From Saccostrea echinata (lineage: Eukaryota), in contig NW_026889807.1 in assembly GCF_033153115.1 (NCBI RefSeq), positions 3,224,001 through 3,288,000 on the forward strand: 64,000 nt of DNA, written 5' to 3'. A model generated the notes under the pieces. It saw only the letters and a list, made by a program, of their open reading frames with translations. It was not told the origin of the DNA and searched no databases. Below, one piece after another: positions 31,186 through 50,116 of the stretch. Numbering within the stretch: position 1 is the stretch's first letter; each line of letters opens with the position of its first letter. The translations under genes and the position numbers were made by a program.

Positions 31186-32776
31186 CTAATTATTGATTTC
31201 TTTTTCTTCAATTCGGTTATTATTTCTTTTGCAAAAGATAGAGTTTAAGAAGTTTAAAATTCTTGGTGAACTAGAAAAGCTAAAAAAAATTAAAAAGCCC
31301 TGCAAAGACGTAAAACATGTAACAACAAAGGAAATAAACCGAAATCTGCAAAAGACTATCGACCACCTGAAGAATCCAAACTGTTCCAGTCAGACTGAAT
31401 AGTTTAATTGAAATAATGAGCTCCGATTTATTCTCTTTCGATTTCCTGATGTTTTTAACAAATTTGATGCTACGAAGAGTTAAAATAAACAAGACAGTGT
31501 TAACTGTACATGTAACAGTTAAAGGGATAATAAAAGTGAGGACGTTTTGAGTGAAATGTTCTACGAAGCACAAGAATTTGCTGTATCCTATGCTTCCTTG
31601 TAAAAGAAAAGTAGAAATCATATTACCACCGACAATTATTAATGGAGTAAAGTAACAAAAGAAAACGTAAAAAGTAAATGTAGCTCTTAACTTTTTACCA
31701 CGATTTTTAGCATTCTCTCTGTAGGTAGAAAAAGTCGTAAACATATGAAAAGAACAAATAAAAAGGCAGCAGCAAAGGGAAAGCCAAAAGTAATGCAAAA
31801 TAACACCTGTTATCATACAAAGCAAAGTCGACCTTTGTAAAACATTTGCTACTGTATAAGTGATTTGCATACAAAAAAGAGAAAAAGTTGTGTTCATAAT
31901 ATTCAAACCAGGAAGAGTGCCTAATCCGGGAACTATCATGTACAGCACAAACAAGGTCAATAAGGATAAAATACTGATAATGTTTAAAACAGTTGTTAAG
32001 GTCTCAAGTTTACTGACATAATCATGATCCATAACAAGTGTAGAAGATGGCTCGGATCGGACACAAACTCGATATTTGTTGTCAAAATCTAAAACAAAGT
32101 CGCCAAAGTAAAAGATTTCTTTGGTTTGCTTTACAGTAATCCGACCCTTTATTTTTCCACTTTTGACTTCGCTTTTGTTAAATATTCTCTGACGGCAAAA
32201 AAGTAAATTACTTACAACAACAAAAAATGATGGATATGATCGATGATCTAGAAAATTATGTATGTGAGCAGCGAATGATTCATATGAATTGGGAAGTAAA
32301 TTTTTTTCTGATTTCAGAGCAATGGTAATACTGGAAAAGCTTTTACCTTTTAGATCGATCGAAATATTTTCATTTCCTTGTTTTTTAACATTCAAAGACA
32401 AGTTAGCAGGTAAAGCCAATAGATCTCTCTCTATCTGGTCCCTGTCAAAGTGTTTAGAATAAGACAAATGGAAATACAAATTCACTTGCAGTGTGAAATG
32501 AAAGTAATCTTCTTTAAAAGTAGTTACCATAGGATATATTGGTAAAAAGTAAAAATCTCTCAAAGAATTTGCACCTGAAGCTAAAAGCTTTTCATATAAG
32601 TGTTGTCTAACAGAATTTGCAACTGAATTAATAATCTTGCTCGTATCATTGCTTATCGATGTGACTTTCAATTGACATAATAAAAAGATTGCATAAGTAA
32701 TTCCTTTCGGGTGCCGAATGACTGACGTGCATTTTCCTCCAACCAGAACCTTCCCAGGATAGCAGATGTCCGTTGT
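31186..32776 (-). CDS. family-B (7tm_2; adhesion/Methuselah-like) GPCR, exon 2: stalk plus 7TM, with +1 frameshift before TM7
   Basis: TTATTTCAG acceptor at 32777 (phase 0). TM motifs LPGLNIMN, CMITGVILHYFWLS, GYSKFLCF, FIIPLTV, SLTGTVW. The canonical TM7 ISFVVTCFTSLQGFLIFFSF lies in the next frame after ~31335 and stops at TAG 31188-31186. Confidence 0.9.
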
Positions 32777-32915
32777 CTGAAATAAGATATCTATATTCAA
32801 TCCAAGTTTTTATAATAAATTCTTGTTTATATTTTCAAGCAATATCACATCTGCTCCAATCTCTGTCAACAATTATAATTTTCAACTTCATCCCCCAAAA
32901 CTACAAACTAAGCAT

Positions 32916-33119
32916 ACCGTGGAATCATTTTAATTTGGGGGGTGGGGGGGGGGTGGGGGTGAATTATCAAGGGTAAGTAAAATTTCGTTGGTTTGTGCAG
33001 ACGTTATTTTGTGTGTAACTCGTATATTCAGAAGATTACATGGATAAAAATACTGTCAAAATAATTGTTGGCGGGGATGTAAATTCGTGGATAAGGGTGA
33101 CAAACGAAATCTATACAGT
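32916..33119. mobile_element. degenerate Tc1/mariner-type MITE in GPCR intron
   Basis: TACCGTGGAATC...ATACAGTA ends with AATTTCGTTGG/AATTCGTGG internal motifs; related fragment at ~42882-42945. Confidence 0.5.
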
Positions 33120-33639
33120 ATAGCTTATTAATTCAAATGAAGGAATAAGTTTTAAATCAAAGGATGAGAATACCTCAATCGAAAAAAATGATTTGGAAAA
33201 AATAATGTCAAAATTCACATATATATAGTTTGTATTAACATTATCGTCCCTAGCAATAAGGTTACAACATTCAACACAAAGGCTTCAGAGGTAAGATAAA
33301 AATACATTGCATTCAGAAAAAAAAAAACAAAAAAACAAAAAAACAAAAAAACTATTGCCGGTTAATTATTAAGCTCATTTAAACATTTTATGTCAGCGTA
33401 ATATTTGCATAACGGTAGTCAGGGAGTTATATATATATAAAAAGATATATAATTTTGTTTACATTACGCAAAATGCAATTAATGGAACAATAAAAGTCAA
33501 CAAATGATTTTGTCGTAGGTACAAGCATTTCAAGCAGGCAACCGGAGAGACTAGTATGTAATGTTTGATGAACTGAAACGAGTTTTCAAGTCGGCAAGCA
33601 ATGTCAGGAAGCCGCATGTAAAATGTGAAGAAAACGATC

Positions 33640-33775
33640 AGAGATCCATCTCAAGAAATACTATAAACAATACAAATATGTGAAGAGGGCGTAAATACAG
33701 ACCCGTGGAAATTTCAGAGGTAGGATCAGGTGCCTAGGAGGAGTGAGCATCCCCAGTTGACCGGTCACACCCGCA
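33640..33775 (-). mobile_element. 3' terminal module of a Penelope-like retroelement
   Basis: Reverse complement GCGGGTGTGACCGGTCAACTGGGGATGCTCACTCCTCCTAGGCACCTGATCCTACCTCTG matches the tail following the RT at ~50010-50075. Confidence 0.7.
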
Positions 33776-34557
33776 GAACAACTTTGCTGATAAATTTTTG
33801 TAGAAGATATTTGAAATAAACATTGATTTGGTGTGTTTTCTCTGAAAGTTAAAAAAATTGCAATTCTTGGGAGCCTCGTACTTCGTGTAATTTAGGGGCA
33901 CATATACAGTACCGACCAGACACAACCTAACAGAAAGCGAACCCAGGGCGCATCCCGGGTTCACTCTCTGGTTTCGCTTCGGGTTCGCTTAGGGCTGACC
34001 CCGAGCGAACCCGGAGCGCACCCGTAGCGAACTCGAAGCGAACCCAGAGCGGACCCAGAGCGGACGCTGAAAGCGAACCCCAAATTCAGTAGCGGTCCCA
34101 GGAAACGAACGCGCGTTCAGTGTTCCGTAACAGTGCTGTCAATCAGGATTAGCGATTAACTCATCGTCGACCAATCAACATGCCGAACAGGTCTGTCAAT
34201 CAGGATAAGTGATAAAATGCGTTCACCATCAGCGCGTCGACAAGTCAACATACAAGTTTGTAATCTAAACATTGTACAAGCAAAGCGTGTGAATGTACAG
34301 TGTAAAAACATTATTAATATGATTTTCAAACTTGATTTTATGTATATGTATTTTAATTCTCCAGACAACATGCAATATTTACACATCCATTTTCATTATT
34401 GTTTAAAATCTAGTAATACATCGCATATTTTTATTATCCAGGTAGCATGTTAAATGTATAGTTACATATTTATTTTCTTTATATTTTTAAAATCCATTAA
34501 TATTTGGATATACATGGCGTACATTTATCAGACAATAAGTACTTTAATTCATAATAG

Positions 34558-36500
34558 AACACAAGATGTGTTTGTGAAACACTGATGCCCCCGTATGGCA
34601 GCTTGTGGCGAAGGTTAAAGTTTCTCAAATGCAAGTCAAATTCCAGGCCAAAAGTAGAAAAAAAAATGTTGGTGCCAAAATAAAGGTCTTGTCTCGAAGA
34701 ATACACCTGTAAAGTTTTAAAGCCCTAGCTGAAACTGTTCAAAAGTTATGGCGAAGGTTAAAGTTTTTTAAAAGTAAGTAAAACGTCAAGGTCAAAATTG
34801 TTGGTATCCAAAGGAAGGACTTGTCACAAGAATTACATATGTGAAGTATGGAAGCCCTAGCACCAACCATGCAAAAGTTATGACCAAGGTTAAAGTTTTT
34901 CAAAAGTAGGTCAAACTCCTCGGTCAAGGTCAAAGGGTCAAAGAGGTTGACATGCAGAGGAAGGTCTTGTCACAAGGAATACATGTGTGAAGTTTAAAAC
35001 CCCAAGTTCCAACCATTCAATAGTTATGGCCAAGGTTAAAGTTTTTCAAAAGTAGTTCAAACTTCTATGTCAAGGTCAAAGAGTCAAAGTGGTTGGTATC
35101 AGGAAGAGCATGTCACAAGAATTACATATGTGAAGTATGAAAGTCCTAGCTTCAACCATTCAAAAGTTATGGCCAAGGTTAAAGTTTTTCAAAAGTAGGT
35201 CAAACTCCTCGGTCAAGGTCAAAGGGTCAAAGAGGTTGACATGCAGAGGAAGGTCTTGTCACAAGAAATACATGTGTGAAGTTTGAAACCCCAAGCTCCA
35301 ACCATTCAAAAGTTATGGCCAAGGTTAAAGTTTTTCAAAAGTAGTTCAAATTCCTATGTCAAGGTCAAGGGGTCAAAGTGGTTGGTATCAAAAGCAAGGT
35401 AAAGTAACAAGGACTACATATGTGAAGTATGAAAGCCGTAGAATCAACCATTCAAAAGTTATGGCCAAGTCAAAGTTTTTCAAAGGTAGGTCAAGCTGCA
35501 ACCATTCAAAAGTTATGGCCAAGGTTAAAGTTTTTCAAAAGTAGTTCAAACTTCTATGTCAAGGTCAAAGAGTCAAAGTGGTTGGTATCAGGAAGAGCAT
35601 GTCACAAAAATTACATATGTGAAGTATGAAAGTCCTAGCTTCAACCATTCAAAAGTTATGGCCAAGGTTAAAGTTTTCAAAAGTAGGTCAAACTCCTAGG
35701 ACAAGGTCAAAGGGTCAAAGAGGTTGATATGTAGAGGAAGGTCTTGTCACAAGGAATACACATGTGAAGTATGAAACCCCATGCTCCAACCATTCAAAAG
35801 TTATGGCCAAGGTTAAAGTTTTTCAAAAGTAGTTCAAACTTCTATGTCAAGGTCAAAGGGTCAAAGTTGTTGGTATCAAAAGCAGGGTAAAATAACAAGG
35901 ACTACATATGTGAAGTATGAAAGGCGTAGAATCAACCATTCAAAAGTTATGGCCAAGGTCAAAGTTTTTCAAAGGTAGGTCAAACTCCTAGGTCAAGGTC
36001 AAAGAGTCAAAAAAGGTGATATCCAGAGAAAGGACTTGTCACAAGGAATACATATGTGAAGTTTGAAACCCCAAGCTCCAACCATTCAAAAGTTATGGCC
36101 AAGGTTAAAGATTTTCAAAAAGTAGTTCAAACTCCTATGTCAAGTTCAAAGGGTCAAAGTGGTTGGTATTCAAAGAAAGGCCTTGTCACAAAGAATACAC
36201 ATGTGAAGTTTGAAACCCCAAGCACCAACTGTTCAGAAGTTATGGCAAAGGTTAAAGTCTCATAAAATTTCGCAAAAGTGGGTCAAACTCCAGGGTCAAG
36301 GTCAAAAGCTCAAATATAATGGTACCCAAAGAAAGGTCTTGTCAAAAGGAATACACATGTGAAACATGAAAGTCCTAGCTCCAACCAATAAAAAGTTATG
36401 GACAAAGTTAAAGTTGACAACAGACAAACAGACAAACTGACAACAGACAGACAGGACAAAAACAATATACCCCGGTATTTTTCGATCCAGGGGCATAATA
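34558..36500 (-). mobile_element. Helentron-associated element with ~12 tandem ~145-bp satellite monomers
   Basis: ACAAGATGTGTTTGTGAAACACTGATGCCCCC end; CCAAGGTTAAAG anchors at 34884, 35030, 35173, 35319, 35519, 35662, 35807, 35953, 36099; (GACA)n; GGGGCATAAT end. Confidence 0.92.
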
Positions 36501-36957
36501 AAAATAATATATTCTCATCAGTGGACCAGTTATTAGTTTTTGTTTGTTTGTTTGTTTTGGTTTTTTGATTGCTGTTGTTTTTTTTTTTATAAGACTTCAG
36601 TTAAACTCGCCTTATAAAACAATGATTTATAGCATGGAAGTAAATTATAAATGATCTGTAACATGAAAGTCATAGCTCCAACCAATCAAAAGTTATGGAC
36701 AAGGTTAAAGTTGACAACAGACAAACAGACAAACGGACAAACAGACAGACAGGACAAAAACAATATACCCCGGGATCTTTCGATCCAGGGGCATAATAAA
36801 AATAATATATTCTCATCAGTGGACCAGTTATTAGTTTTTGTTTGTTTGTTTGTTTTGGTTTTTTTATTGTTGTTGTTGTTTTTTATAAGACTTCCGTTAA
36901 ACTCGCCTTATAAAACAATGATTTATAGCATGGAAGTAAATTATAAATGATCTGTAA
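36363..36957. repeat. ~297-bp direct tandem duplication of Helentron terminus plus flank
   Basis: 36363-36659 repeated at 36660-36957 (AACATGAAAGTC...AAATGATCTGTA). Confidence 0.92.
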
Positions 36958-37944
36958 AACAAAACTCAAATTACACTGTATGAGTATTTTTAGTGATTAT
37001 CACGACCAACATGTACATGTAATGCGCGACAAACTAGCTTAAATGTAAACTGCTAATATGAAAACTTAGCATTTTACGTGTCTCAGCTATTTCATAGATA
37101 AGATCATAATTCAGTTGTTTTTCTTTCAAACATTTAAATTACGATTTAGCAATTGCAATTACAGTTGGAAGTTCCAACTGATTTTAAAACGCATGAATAA
37201 TGTAAACAAATGAATTTGAAAGGTTTTTTTAATTAAGATACTCTTATCAACTTCACTCCATCCGATACATCGAAATAAATTTAACACCTTTTCTTCTTTT
37301 TCTTTCAAGATATACTTAGCCTGTAAGTTAAGAAAAATAAAAGTGATAATTCTACGTCGAATGTACGTTGAAATTATTTAAAATTTATCAACGTTCTCCA
37401 CATTGTCAATTACATGTACATGTTTCGATCGCCATAAAAACAGTAACGATCGATTTCACTACTGTATTTGGAATATACAAGGGGCGGGGCTTACTAGCGG
37501 CAAGATTAAAGCGGGGTCCGCTTCACACATGAGTGCGTAAAGCGAACCCGGAAAGTGAACGCCGGGTCCGCTATAGCCTACCCAGAGCTGACCCTGAGCG
37601 AACGCAGAGCAAACCCGAAGCGCACCCAGAGCGGTCCCAAATTTTCTGAAAGCGGACCCAGAGCGAACAAGGAAGCGAACCCCGGGTGCGCTTTGGGTTC
37701 GCTCTGGTATCAGGTTGTGCCGGTCGGTACTGTATCTTATTAAGATATTTCCTCTTCAGGGAAGACCTCATAGTAATTACGTTTAGATTCATATTCGTGC
37801 AAAAAAAAGGGGGGGGGGGACAAAGTTCTTCAAAGGAAAGTACAATTATCAGTCATGAATACATAGAATTTACTTAAACTGTTAAATTCGTCATATATTT
37901 TCTTTACGTCTTTCGTTATTAGCAGTGCTTGTATTTCCTAAATG

Positions 37945-38291
37945 ACCATTCGCGGTAGCTCAGTCGGTAGAGCGCTCGCTTCGTGATCGGGAGGTCGTGA
38001 GTTCGAATCTCGGCCACGACTGACCTAAGTCGATAAAAAATGGGTAGCAACTGTTCCTTCGCCATGCGCTCGACACTTTGAAGTGAAAGTTGTAGGTCCT
38101 TCGGACGAGACCTTAAAAACCAAGGTCCCGTGTCACGGCAGGCGTTGGCACGATAAAGATCCCTCACTGCTCAACGGCCCTGAGTGCCGAGCAAAGATCA
38201 AAATTTTTAAGCCCTTCACTGGTTTTTGGTAACGTCTCTATATGAATGAAAAATTCTCAAATGGGACTTAAAACAACATACAATCAATCAA
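37945..38291 (+). mobile_element. full-length young V-type SINE with perfect 13-bp TSD
   Basis: TSD TATTTCCTAAATG at 37932-37944 and 38292-38304; intact A/B boxes; (CAAT)n tail. Confidence 0.95.
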
Positions 38292-38525
38292 TATTTCCTA
38301 AATGTGCATTTCCTTAGTTCACAAAAGCATGTTAGGTTAAAACGTTTTTTTTTTTTTTTTGAGCTACAAATCTTCTAATTACAATAATGAATAATGCATG
38401 GAACATAGAACTGAGAAAGCTAATACGCAAATAAATGTTTGATAATCGTTAAATTTGAAAATACAATGGTACAGTCAAACATTAAATGTTTCATTCACTG
38501 ATATTGATTTTAAAATGCATGTTAC

Positions 38526-40690
38526 CTCGACTTTTCTTTCCATGAGTTTTGCATTTATGCCTATCTTCGGGAAAAGCAATTCTCTCATTAATTTTTTTCC
38601 GGAATATGTCGTCTGTCCCGTATATCGGCCTACATTCGCTTCTGGATGATATTGTATCTTTCATCCATGCCTTATTTTCCTCACAAAAGGAACAAAACTG
38701 GTTTCTGAACGGATAAACAAATGGGTGATTGCTAACGTCAGGTAAAGTCAAGCAGGCCTCTTTGATTTTCACATCTAAGATAATTGAATGATTACAAGCT
38801 TTTATGTCACCGTTTTGATATGAATTACACATTTGACAAAATACGTTTTTAGAACTATCAAAGGGCATAAATGCTTGGGGACTCGAATTTTCACACATCC
38901 ATTTAACAACTCCGTCTCTTTCAGATCGAGGACAATTCCACTTGGAAATTGAAGGTTTTTGATCACATGTGACCAGCTTGGACGTGTCATACGATATATC
39001 GCTCTTTTGAGATTTAGCCTGTTGCATGAGTTGGCTGAAATTCATCGAATAAATGAAATTGAATTGAGTTTCACAAATAATATTGAAGTCGACAATTTTA
39101 TAGTGATCGTGAAATAGACTGCCATCTTCTATCGTGTACTTCGTATTACAAAGAAAACAAAAGATATTTCTGTATGTTATGTTTCTTGACAAGATAAGAA
39201 CATCATAATATTTAGCATTCTCTTCACAAAGCTGTTTAACGTTGTTATACTCAGTTGTTGATATCTTTTTCAAGATATTTTCATAACACTTTGAGACTAC
39301 AAGGACACTTCCATCTTTATGAGTCTTTGAGAACGGAGACATTCGGCCAATGCATTCCACTGGATGCAGCAATGCTGTGTCAATGAAACAAGTGCACTTT
39401 CCAAGAAATAAACAGGAATATGAGCAATCACAAGTTTGCTTTGCAGTGATGTTTCGAACACTCTCTGGTAACAGGTCCTGTCTACAAAGACGCTCAGGGT
39501 AAATTGCTGCTATTGTATTGAAAAGCTGGCCAAGGCTGACATTGTCATATTTTTCCACAGTTTCGAATGGAAAATAAATCTTGTTCATTTGTGAATCTCT
39601 TATCATTTCAAAAATAGAATCACTACTAAAGATTGTGTTAAAAAGCTTCAAGTAGAATTTTTTCTTTCTTCCAGGAATATAATGTTCACTTACAACTGTT
39701 GAAAAGTCCGGAAAATGATAACGAAATACCGCTTGGCAGGCACTTCCATGGCAAAGCTTAGAGTCAGAAATGTTTAAGATCCCTATATTAAAATTACACT
39801 GGAAACAGTAGAAATTTTTATACGGATATGTTATATTTGAAATAGAACTCTGTTGACATTTGAGGACTGTTTCATTGTTTTGTATAGAACAGGAGTCTAT
39901 GACTGGCCCAGGTCTATTCTTTTTTATCAATTTGCACAAATAGCAGAATATATTCTTATGAAGTCTAAATTGATTGACGAAAGAGGATGAACAAGCAATA
40001 TTTAATTCTTCATGATCCGGGCAACTTTGAATGAAATACTCATTTGGATGTAGATATATTGGACGAACAATTTCCTCCATAATAGTTGGGGGCGAATAAA
40101 CAACAGTTGTTTTGTAAGCTTTTGACATGTCTTTCAGTTGTTGATAAGATTCAATGAAGTTGATGAAATTCGGTACTCTTAATAATTCATCTCTCGACAC
40201 CTCCCATTTCACTAAATTTATCTCGTTTTCTCCATGACAAAATGCACAAAAAACATTGCGATACGAATAATTACTAGCAACAGAGCTAACCGGGGCATTA
40301 AAATCAAAATCGTCAGAGACATTTGTACAATTCTGCGTCTCAATTTTCGTGGAATATTCAGGACAGTTCGTGATTATCTCGTACATGGGCATGCCGACGA
40401 ATTCTGATTTCTTTTCCATATGGACATGAGGGGTATCTAATTTGGCCAATGGTCTTTGAAAAAACTTATCAGGACAACAGTCCCAATGTTGAATGCAAGT
40501 TTCCTCACAGGAACATGGCTGACAGCGAGAAAGTATCACGTGAGGATCATAATTTGTCATACCTGGCCAATCAAAACACATGTGTTTCTCTCCACAGGCT
40601 TCCATATAAATGGTCATCAGCCGTGAAATATTGAATCCAGATGTTTGACAGATTAAAAAAAGTTAAACAGAAAGCAGCTGATTCAAGCAT
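38526..40690 (-). CDS. family-B GPCR exon 1: signal peptide plus Cys-rich ectodomain with two somatomedin-B-like domains and six (Y/F)(R/K)NxFCxxC repeats
   Basis: 708-aa ORF 40617-38491; SMB CQPCSCEETCIQHWDCCPD and CDCSYSCLFLGKCTCFID; repeats YRNVFCAFC, HKNIFCYLC, YKNFYCFQC, YRNIFCFLC, SKNVFCQMC, FRNQFCSFC; donor GAG|GTAAC at 38525; ATG at 40690 one base out of frame. Confidence 0.85.
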
Positions 40691-41181
40691 TGTTCTTCTC
40701 TGTAATTTATTTTCACTTTGAAATCTGTAATAATCGTAAAGCATCTTTAACTCACTGTATGCTATATTTCATATGTAATTCCACCCTCTTGTGAAATAAT
40801 AGAATTTCACAAAGTCTTTCATTATTTTAACTTCTTGTCAAATAGAATGCCTTTAAAAAGTGTAATTAAAAATATTGTTTAAATTCTTTTTTTTAATAAT
40901 CTACTATAACCAATTCCTTTTTTAAAAAAATATCATAAGGGTTATAACTCTGACACTGTTCAATGTATCTTTATTCATGCATTCTCTTTATTATTCTTTT
41001 ATTGTGAACTGGCTCCCCTGATATAAAAAGTTGACGAATACCTAACTTAAAAAGTTATTATTATTTGGAACTTAATTACAAAGATAATTTTATTCAAATC
41101 AGTTTTCAAGATTTCTTTTATAATGTTTTTCATGAAAAATGATATATTACACAGAACAGAGCCTTGCTTAAGGATTAATGG

Positions 41182-41331
41182 AATCATTCATTACTACGAG
41201 TGTGGGATAGTGAAATTCCACCGAGGGTCCAAGATTCAGGGTCTAGAACGAGGCTTTGCCGAGTCCTAGACCGTGAATCTTGGTCCCGAGGTGGAATTTC
41301 ATTATCCCATAAGAGTATGTGATGAATGATT
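41182..41331. repeat. ~150-bp near-perfect palindrome, probable terminal hairpin of the adjacent Crypton
   Basis: AATCATTCATTAC..TGGGATAGTGAAATTCCACC..CCAAGATTCA..GGTCTAG / CTAGACC..TGAATCTTGG..GGTGGAATTTCATTATCCCA..GTGATGAATGATT. Confidence 0.85.
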
Positions 41332-41804
41332 ATTTTTCACGAATTATTTTATCGAACATAACGACCATTAAAAAAAATATTTTTTTTTATTTTGTATTTA
41401 ATAAAAAAATCTGAATACACCATCAAAGAGATCGTACCTGAAAATGGTTTACACGTAATGTGTAAACTCAGAAAATAAATTTCAAATCACTTAAATCATT
41501 CTGAATGACATAAACTGGAATTTAAAAAAAAATATATATATCCGATAGCGTATACAATTCATTTCAGAAGAATCCTTCCGCGACCTACAGATAGTGCTAT
41601 TTAAAAAAGTGAAAACACAACAATCTTTTGAATGAAAATAAATTTGAATTAATAAATTTAACAACAATATTTTTAGTATATGTGATATTTATTATTAGAC
41701 ATTATTACAAATTTTATATCAGAAGCAAAGTTTACGTTCGAAATGGGTCATTTACATAAAATGACCTACATATGCATTATATGTGAAGCATGTTTTAGCT
41801 TAGC

Positions 41805-42810
41805 CTAGTCCGAGTCGGAGTCAAACACACAAACTCGTTTTCTGGGTTGATAGGTGTTGTTTGTGATATTAAATGTTACATTTCCATGAATTTGTGACCC
41901 GCTAAATATTGATCCCATAGACGTTGATGTCGAGCGCTGCATATTAACTTGGTTGTTCTGTGTTTCAATGGCGGTATTATCCGACGTCGAAGAACGGCTA
42001 CATGTAAGCGTGTGTCTCTGTAGAGCTCGGTAGGGCTCTTGTTGATGATGATGTTTCAAAACGAGAATTGTTTTGTGTACAAGCATTTGAGAATGGAACT
42101 AATGAGGATACATTGCCGGAGGAATTTGATAAAATGCTGCTTACTGCGTATTTCTGTGAGTCGTTTATTGTGCGGTAGTTATCCAATGGCTGAATGTTTT
42201 TTGTGACCTGTTACATACATTTGTAATGTGTCAGGGACATTCGAATCCGTCATGCTTTGGATGAGAGTTTTACGGACACTTGTGTTGGTGATTTTACTTT
42301 ATGTCAGGTAGGCTAGTATTCTTTTCATAGGTCATTGAGTTTGTTGACGCCCATAGGGCTACAGATGAACCATCCATCCTGCATTCTAGGACGTTTTCCG
42401 TTAGTAACGACTGAAATATAAAAGGGGTCCTCATGTTTTGAATGTTTATCTCTATACAAAATATAGGTTGATACGGGGCATTTTTCAGGGTTGGCAGGGG
42501 TTGCATACACGCCCGGCTATCAGTGACATCCACGCCAGTTCTAGTCCTCGTGGTCCTTTCATGGTACTCTAAGTAGTCGAGTTGAAGTGCCTCATCCCTC
42601 TTTAGGACTACTTCCCACCACCTCATGTTACGGTTTTCAGTCCCCCTTCGCATACCAAAATACAATGTGATGTGAAAACCAAAGCGTGCTTATCAAAGGG
42701 GTTGGTGTAGCTTTTCCAAGTTGTTCAGTCTTGTAAGGGTTTCAATTTCATCAGGTGTTAAAGAGTCGGACCTTTGGGGTTTATTTCCACTCCCCTTTAA
42801 TTTCAAAATA
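41805..42810 (-). mobile_element. degenerate Crypton (DUF3504 / tyrosine recombinase) transposon coding remnant
   Basis: Fragments in shifting frames: KGSGNKPQRSDSLTPDEI, YFGMRRGTENRNMRW, YHERTTRTRTG, MYATPANPEKCPV, WFICSPMGVNKL, ITNTSVRKT, VTGHK, LDNY; multiple frameshifts; 5' truncated. Confidence 0.88.
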
Positions 42811-48318: not shown

Positions 48319-49259
48319 ATGTGTGTGATATGTATCCTCTCAAACGGCAAAAATGAGAACTTTCAATCAAAGCTGAAAGACAACTTACAGTAATTATTTG
48401 ATCACTTAAGGGAAGGTACGGTTATAGGTACGGTGAAATCTCAAACATCGATTTCTCGAATACAATATATCGAAGTGAATTGGAAGCCCCTTTCAATTTT
48501 CAATATGTATTTTATCCCATTATCTAGAGCTTTCGAATATCTTGAAGTTTTCAGTGACATCTAAGCTATCATCAACTTTCCATCAGACAGAACATTCAGT
48601 GGCTTTTCATGCCTATCCAATTGATCATTAACCGTTCAAAAATCTTTCAGTGGTCATTTAAAAATCATTTACTTATTCTTACTTATTCTTTACTATTATT
48701 TAGGTAATAAAATTTTAAAAAATTCTCCGACAGTTTAATAATTCTCGCTTCTTTAGTAAATTGCTTATAATTATTTAATTTTTAACTTCATTTTTTTCTT
48801 CTAATTTGTTTTATTAAAATGTACATATCTGAATTATTACTTTTCGATAAGATCAGTAATGCTTACCATTCAAATCATGCAAGAAAAGTAAAAGCAATGT
48901 CTCATCAATAACATAAACAAAATCTTTCACAGTTTACAAACACTTGTCCTTTTAATTTACAAAAATAACTCTTTCAATTGGCACAACGCCCTGTGTTCAA
49001 AGAAAGATAATCCATTTATATTTATCGAAATTGAAACGTACGGATATAATGCTTTATGTACAACAATGATTTTTTTAAAAAGAAACTTTCTTCTATGATA
49101 CCAATGCTCCTTCCAAACGGCATTTTCTTCATTTTCTTCATTTGACAGCTGCTTTTTCAATAAAAATGGAAATTTACCTTGTCTCTCGTTAATTGCAATA
49201 TTATTTTGTTAAAACATTCTGATTGTACACACAAGTACTCTTAAGTTTATATTTCAAAG

Positions 49260-50116
49260 GTGCTTCAGTTTGTTATTGGCAATATCTGTGGTTGTGGTAA
49301 AATGTAGTTTTTTGAGACAAGGTCGTCCAACAATCTGTTGGAAATCCCATGGGTACCAATTGCGCCTCGTTAAAGGGTTAGCAGACCTTTTTTGTATTCA
49401 TATGAAGTGGAATTTATTTAAAATCTTATACATGAGAAAAAGAAATCTCTTGCTGTGGCCTTCCACTCGACATTTAGATATATGGACGACGTATTATCAA
49501 TTAACAATAGTTATTTCCATTCACATGTCGACACGATATATCCCAGTGAGCTTGAAACAAAAGATACCAGAGTGTGACACATTTGTATCATATTTGGATA
49601 TTTTACTAGAAAAAGGCGCTAATGGTAATCTAACAACATAGCTTTATGATAAACGTGATCAATTAAACTTTTCAATCGTCATCTTCCCTTCCTTATGCAG
49701 CAATATACCCTTCTCACCTGCATATGGTGTGTATATCTCTCAGTTGATTCGATACGCAAGAGTATGCTCTACGTTTGATCAATTTCTAAAACGGAGCTAG
49801 TTATTGACAAACAAGTTGATGATACAATCAAGAGTCTCGTTTAAAGTCGTCATTTCGAAATCTATATTTTAGATACAATGACCTTGTCAGTAAATGCAAT
49901 CTCTCATTAAGTCAAATGCTGACTGACGCTTTTCATGCTAATTGTTAGGTCATTATTTCCACACTGAAAAGTCGACGGATTTTTTCGTTATTACCCGATC
50001 ATGACAAGGAGCACACGGCGGGTGTAAAGAGTGGGGATGTCCACTTCCCATGGCACCTGATCCCACCTCTGCTTTGGAAGTCGTTGTTTGTTCTGCCCCC
50101 GATTTTTATTGTTTAA
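49260..50116 (+). mobile_element. degenerate Penelope-like retroelement: RT C-terminal half and 3' tail (tail resumes at 54820-54868)
   Basis: Across frameshifts: PMGTNCA, LADLFLYSYEVEFI, FRYMDDVLSINN, IYPSELE, SYLDILL, LYDKRD, SNIPFSPAYGVYISQLIRYARVC. Confidence 0.85.

Follow-up and report, generated by a model that had tools for sequence, protein, structure and literature searches.

Receptors belonging to the Mth/Mthl (Methuselah/Methuselah-like) family are ancient and are defined by their seven-transmembrane (7TM) domain. De Mendoza, Jones and Friedrich (2016, PMC4768249) described an expansion of the family in the oyster Crassostrea gigas, with five genes forming a clade of posterior probability 1 and bootstrap 99 and with weak deeper nodes inside the family. 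The same paper reports SMB domains in members from Nematostella, amphioxus and acorn worm, and describes the Methuselah_N ectodomain as arthropod-only. An SMB/kringle-bearing expansion of ten genes is known from amphioxus (Nordstrom 2008, PMC2246102) and a Methuselah-like expansion from octopus (PMC6408891). Ligands are known in insects only, where Gbp switches on Mthl10 during the calcium signalling of wounds (PMC9117934). Here we analyze a 64,000-nucleotide stretch of the Saccostrea echinata genome (contig NW_026889807.1, positions 3,224,001–3,288,000), hereafter the window, in which two distant open reading frames (ORFs) on the minus strand point to a receptor gene at positions 31186..40690. 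We consider it probable that this is a two-exon oyster Methuselah-like class-B G protein-coupled receptor (GPCR) gene, carrying three frameshifts in this copy, whose intact relatives are uncleaved single-chain receptors of the cell surface.

Two coding exons of one gene

The two minus-strand ORFs, one of 708 amino acids from an ATG at 40617 and the other of 506 amino acids from a TTG at 32800, are, judged by their sequence, two coding exons of one gene for a class-B receptor of ~1,250 residues. Coding exon 1 (38526..40690, minus strand) encodes a likely signal peptide (40637..40690, minus strand; ~18 hydrophobic residues, recognized by eye and from the homologous N-termini of paralogues L013–L018) followed by a duplicated Cys-rich ectodomain, in the region where homologues match Pfam DUF8401/PF28443. 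Coding exon 2 (31186..32776, minus strand) encodes the stalk, the 7TM domain, helix 8 and a tail, and ends in a shifted frame at a TAG (31186–31188). The intervening intron (32777..38525, minus strand; 5,749 bp) is of phase 0 and GT–AG type, with its donor at 38525 and its acceptor at 32777, exactly as an earlier reading of the letters alone, the original prediction, had placed both sites, the common strand and a ~5.7-kb gap. Alignment to intact paralogues revealed that the window copy carries three +1 frameshifts without any in-frame stop, and its read-through product measures 1,250 amino acids against 1,251 in the intact paralogue L013.

The position of the intron is conserved throughout the family. 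Among 20 paralogue loci, picked for having matches to both the 7TM part and the second half of exon 1, all 20 carry an intron with a YAG acceptor at the corresponding place and in the same phase; 12 have a GT donor and eight a GC donor, and sizes span ~0.15–5 kb. The GC donor (AG/GCAAGT) marks an eight-paralogue subclade (L019–L025 and L027), and L026, of the same group, has GT. Across the junction, the RefSeq model P0022 is identical, letter for letter, to exon 1 plus exon 2 of paralogue L031.

Homologues were collected with an ectodomain profile that retrieved 2,595 representatives at E ≤ 0.001, the best 150 of which include 30 of at least 1,000 amino acids; a search with exon 2 found no longer homologues. 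In the stored protein collection no sequence matched the window ORFs or exon 1 of L013 exactly. Ten homologues that we looked up are models from oysters, scallops, a mussel and a pearl oyster, and joined models of 1,200–1,320 amino acids occur in all four groups. It is therefore very improbable that the ORFs are separate genes, one for a secreted Cys-rich protein and one for a short 7TM receptor: such a split would have to accommodate splice sites and phase kept in 20 of 20 loci across very different intron lengths, an exon 2 with neither a start codon nor a signal peptide of its own, and bivalve models that join both parts. What weighs against a single gene is that annotation of the closest relatives is in many cases incomplete, with several automatic models that are dominated by or confined to the 7TM domain or contain exon 1 only. 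Genes of this kind are frequently split in annotation and wrongly labelled as adhesion or latrophilin receptors. The claim that both ORFs belong to one family-B receptor of about 1,250 residues thus stands.

Domain architecture of a receptor without GAIN or GPS

The seven-helix domain (31272..32041, minus strand; TM7 out of frame past the third frameshift) is, by its sequence motifs and profiles, a class-B domain of the 7tm_2 type. Pfam PF00002 matches 36 of 46 family exons from the genome (L013 with E 1e-9), as had been anticipated, and does not match the truncated exon 2 of the window itself. A profile of the domain matches adhesion and secretin receptors in the PDB, and an AlphaFold2 model of exon 2 displays seven transmembrane helices plus helix 8. 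The motifs LPG, HYFWL and SLQG, from which the class had first been recognized, are all present, with SLQG readable in the shifted frame only.

Two predicted modules lie between the exon junction and TM1. The first is a ferredoxin-fold, SEA-like stalk domain (32336..32701, minus strand) that exposes neither a GS[VIL] nor a furin site in its β2–β3 region. The second is a small disulfide-bracketed β-module (C...VC; 32063..32197, minus strand) located just before TM1, in the place of the GPS of adhesion GPCRs. Both are seen in a stalk model of high confidence (pLDDT, predicted local distance difference test, of 92). Foldseek returned no match to this model at E ≤ 0.001; the part of Gpr126 that it matches, residues 372–503, is the SEA domain. 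Neither a GAIN domain nor the Mth ectodomain appears in the lists of fold matches, an absence that is in itself no proof. A GAIN domain in the stalk was considered and rejected on the ferredoxin-type α/β fold and the β-module of the model. The original prediction overlooked the SEA-like domain, and we found neither a description of this stalk nor any paper on a SEA domain in a Methuselah-like GPCR in the open-access literature, a coverage that leaves out most subscription papers.

The GPS motif C.C.H[LM][TS] is absent from 46 of 46 stalks and from 30 of 30 homologues of at least 1,000 amino acids. Adding P0016 and P0007 to those 30, GPS (PF01825) or GAIN was matched by none of 32 homologues and 7tm_2 by 28, and no GAIN Pfam match was found in the 46 stalks. 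The stalk recurs in 28 of the 30 long homologues. The receptor is thus without GAIN or GPS, and intact family members are probably not autoproteolysed, as originally proposed. In the β2–β3 loop, a SEA-type GS[VIL] occurs in one of 46 stalks and a furin site in none. Each of the three Nematostella Mth/Mthl proteins in PMC4768249 has furin-like basic sites in what, judged by eye, seems to be the counterpart of the SEA-like stalk.

The pre-TM1 module would be Methuselah-like, as had been suggested for the region before TM1. Its cysteines C194 and C238 are nearly invariant, and the published alignment (de Mendoza 2016, PMC4768249) lines the module up across oyster, Nematostella and Drosophila Mthl proteins. 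A profile search with this module did not match the solved Mth ectodomain, and Methuselah_N (PF06652) was matched nowhere in the window, the family exons, the homologues or the stalks.

The ectodomain consists of two copies of a unit formed by one SMB-like motif and three Cys repeats, and the two halves of exon 1 align with each other (HHalign 99.85%, E 6e-31). SMB-like motif 1 (40468..40515, minus strand) reads CxCxxxCxxxxxCCxD and recurs in every one of the 17 exon-1 sequences from the genome; it scores 13.6 bits against PF01033, under the cut-off of 23.1. In SMB-like motif 2 (39379..39432, minus strand), a conserved Cys is replaced by Phe in the window copy. PF01033 is matched at E ≤ 0.05 by four of 31 alignment members and above its curated cut-off by two of 32 homologues. 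With both this cut-off and the full eight-Cys pattern out of reach, the motif is SMB-like rather than SMB proper, and the announced SMB-repeat ectodomain with two PF01033 domains was an overstatement. An ectodomain made mainly of SMB repeats was accordingly discarded. Profiles of the ectodomain, of the stalk and of the pre-TM1 region found nothing meaningful among PDB sequences, and the Atlas model of homologue P0019, of low confidence, matches only DUF8401 clusters.

Compared with Drosophila Mth, Mthl10 and Mthl15, the oyster receptor shares a class-B 7TM domain without GAIN, and its pre-TM1 Cys module is lined up with Mthl15 and Mthl1 in the published alignment; it lacks Methuselah_N, has a much longer ectodomain and adds the SEA-like domain. 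Adhesion GPCRs (ADGRL3, ADGRD1 and Gpr126/ADGRG6) are the nearest solved 7TM structures by profile and fold, and share a long Cys-rich ectodomain and, in Gpr126, a SEA-type fold like the one predicted here; in contrast, the oyster receptor has no GAIN, GPS or tethered agonist. By analogy with SEA-like stalks in mucins, Notch and Gpr126, these proteins could be GAIN-less, force-gated adhesion-type receptors, in which the ectodomain would be anchored to matrix or to an adjacent cell, and pulling on the SEA-like stalk would turn the 7TM domain on. We regard this mechanism, the chief rival to ligand sensing, as quite unlikely.

Placement and size of the family

In a 7TM tree of 37 rows, which includes 22 of the 46 genomic exons and no Drosophila rows, the window sequence falls in a six-row subclade that is sister to P0219, the C. 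gigas 'Mth-like 3', plus P0227 with support of 97/98. Over 431 amino acids, exon 2 of the window shares 45% identity with P0219. GPS-bearing receptors lie outside the family at 100/99, in a comparison of three rows on long branches. Cgig_10025895, a Mth/Mthl member in Table S3 of PMC4768249, reads by eye as the C-terminal part of P0219 ('probable GPCR Mth-like 3'). Through these two proteins, and hence indirectly, sequence comparison would place the window gene in the published Mth/Mthl clade. Another oyster protein, Cgig_10006654, displays the full architecture found here, with the ectodomain motifs, the junction and the pre-TM1 module. The window gene is therefore a further, frameshifted member of a family already described as the oyster Mth/Mthl expansion (de Mendoza 2016), with a parallel in amphioxus (Nordstrom 2008), and does not represent the poorly characterized receptor class that had been proposed. 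The 2016 paper gives the same 7TM domain but lists five oyster members, to whose ectodomains it assigns no domain, whereas we find a resolved architecture, a frameshifted copy and many more loci.

The same domain set, 7tm_2 with DUF8401 (PF28443) and occasional SMB, occurs in Pfam 38 and the ESM Atlas. Atlas clusters of this type, which include homologue P0016, come from Cnidaria, Arthropoda, Mollusca and Echinodermata. The bivalve form differs in its duplicated ectodomain module and in its length, ~1,250 amino acids against 650–875 in most clusters.

Searched with the 7TM part, the genome yielded 121 matches that condense to 108 loci on 34 contigs, a number that is a minimum as far as the search goes and yet includes near-identical duplicates (e.g. 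contigs C16/C54). Of the 108 loci, 84 keep a frame of 490 or more amino acids that no stop interrupts, and the second half of exon 1 has 43 matches. The expansion, with at least 108 loci, near-identical duplicates included, is far larger than the five oyster genes of the 2016 survey, and this family of about 100 loci had escaped the original prediction. Within the open-access literature, most subscription papers being outside coverage, we found neither a description of the size of the oyster expansion nor any mollusc expansion of SMB-bearing secretin-type GPCRs; the topic of SMB in Methuselah-like GPCRs likewise gave nothing, and that of Methuselah receptors in bivalves gave two papers on insects. 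Two pairs of paralogue clusters in the assembly (C16 versus C54 and C48 versus C58) are doubled at 98–99.5% identity, suggesting retained haplotigs. A +2 frameshift in a C-run sets locus L073 apart from L034.

Fate of the window copy and possible role of the family

Each of the three frameshifts is a +1 insertion on the minus strand. Frameshift 1 (40655..40661) lies in a T7 run within the likely signal peptide; frameshift 2 (38592..38598) lies at an A7 run shortly before exon 1 ends, where a Pro conserved in close paralogues is missing; frameshift 3 (31332..31338) lies in TTTATTT, where TM7 begins. As assembled, the window copy is predicted to yield no receptor, because the first frameshift falls at codons 10–12. 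Three indels had been announced and are present; that they may be true lesions had gone unnoticed.

The window lineage has been under purifying selection. Its branch has a ratio of nonsynonymous to synonymous substitution rates (dN/dS) of 0.32–0.38, in line with intact paralogues, and the copy has no stop in 1,230 codons against ~26 expected under branch-wide neutral drift, zero stops being plausible only below ~0.02 neutral substitutions per site. Selection therefore acted until recently at least, and an old pseudogene is ruled out by the missing stops.

We put the chance that the window copy is a very recent pseudogene at a little better than even. Real decay is suggested by two lesions that are not clean extensions of a homopolymer, by the loss of two of 60 conserved Cys (0–1 in intact paralogues), and by the 24 of 108 family loci that are visibly broken, true pseudogenes among them, with a near-identical pair (L087/L088) sharing its lesions. 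The neighbouring sister paralogue L014 (G000:C28:3271500-3279500) offers a parallel, with three +1 run insertions, a 4-nt deletion and two stops; one of its insertions sits in the same TM7 T-run as frameshift 3. With a probability just short of even, the copy would instead be an intact working gene, its three insertions being consensus errors of long-read assembly. All three lesions are +1 and at or in base runs, deletions and stops are zero, dN/dS equals that of intact paralogues, the assembly holds no haplotig partner of the locus that we could find (84% for the next best match), and the majority of the 22 further broken loci that we inspected have mixed deletions and stops, unlike the window copy. 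Such errors are not dense genome-wide, since 84 of the 108 loci keep their open frame, which, together with the signs of decay, speaks against this explanation.

In the intron, which the original prediction had called TE-filled, the clearest content is a 146-bp tandem array (34750..36423, no strand assigned), followed by ACAG-type microsatellites to ~36760, and other short repeats; the 34750–36760 region may resemble bivalve Helentron-associated or pearl-type elements. Two GC-rich patches with an 11-bp unit (33932–34080 and 37569–37707) also lie in the intron, one partly inverted with respect to the other. Upstream of the start codon by ~480 bp, a ~225-bp self-complementary repeat (41172–41397), similar to a miniature inverted-repeat transposable element, has many copies genome-wide at 86–92% identity. 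Short degenerate ORFs at 41805–42689 (minus strand) and 49213–49641 (plus strand) have no Pfam match and resemble tyrosine-recombinase/Crypton and retroelement remnants.

In the uncleaved Methuselah-like receptor that we favour, an intact member would likely reach the cell surface as a single chain. With its duplicated disulfide-rich ectodomain it would engage a protein or peptide outside the cell, by analogy with Drosophila Mthl10–Gbp wound signalling and in view of the birth-and-death pattern of the genes, a pattern typical of sensing repertoires. The predicted SEA-like stalk and Methuselah-type module would then pass the signal to the seven-helix core and on to a G protein. More tentatively, and on balance doubtfully, the ~100 receptors may be GPCRs for the innate sensing of damage or pathogens, a birth-and-death repertoire in which the duplicated ectodomains have diversified. 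It would retain an ancestral Methuselah-like architecture of SMB-like/DUF8401 module, a hitherto unrecognized SEA domain, a Mth-type lid and the 7TM domain, with SEA rather than GAIN as the stalk module in this old branch of class B, furin-cleavable in cnidarian members.

Taken alone, the locus is unremarkable, a single and possibly dead copy from a family already described; the extent of the expansion, the annotation errors and the SEA-like stalk are by-products of modest value. Should the family indeed be a variable repertoire for immunity or the sensing of wounds, it would bear on disease biology in shellfish and on how class-B ectodomains arose.

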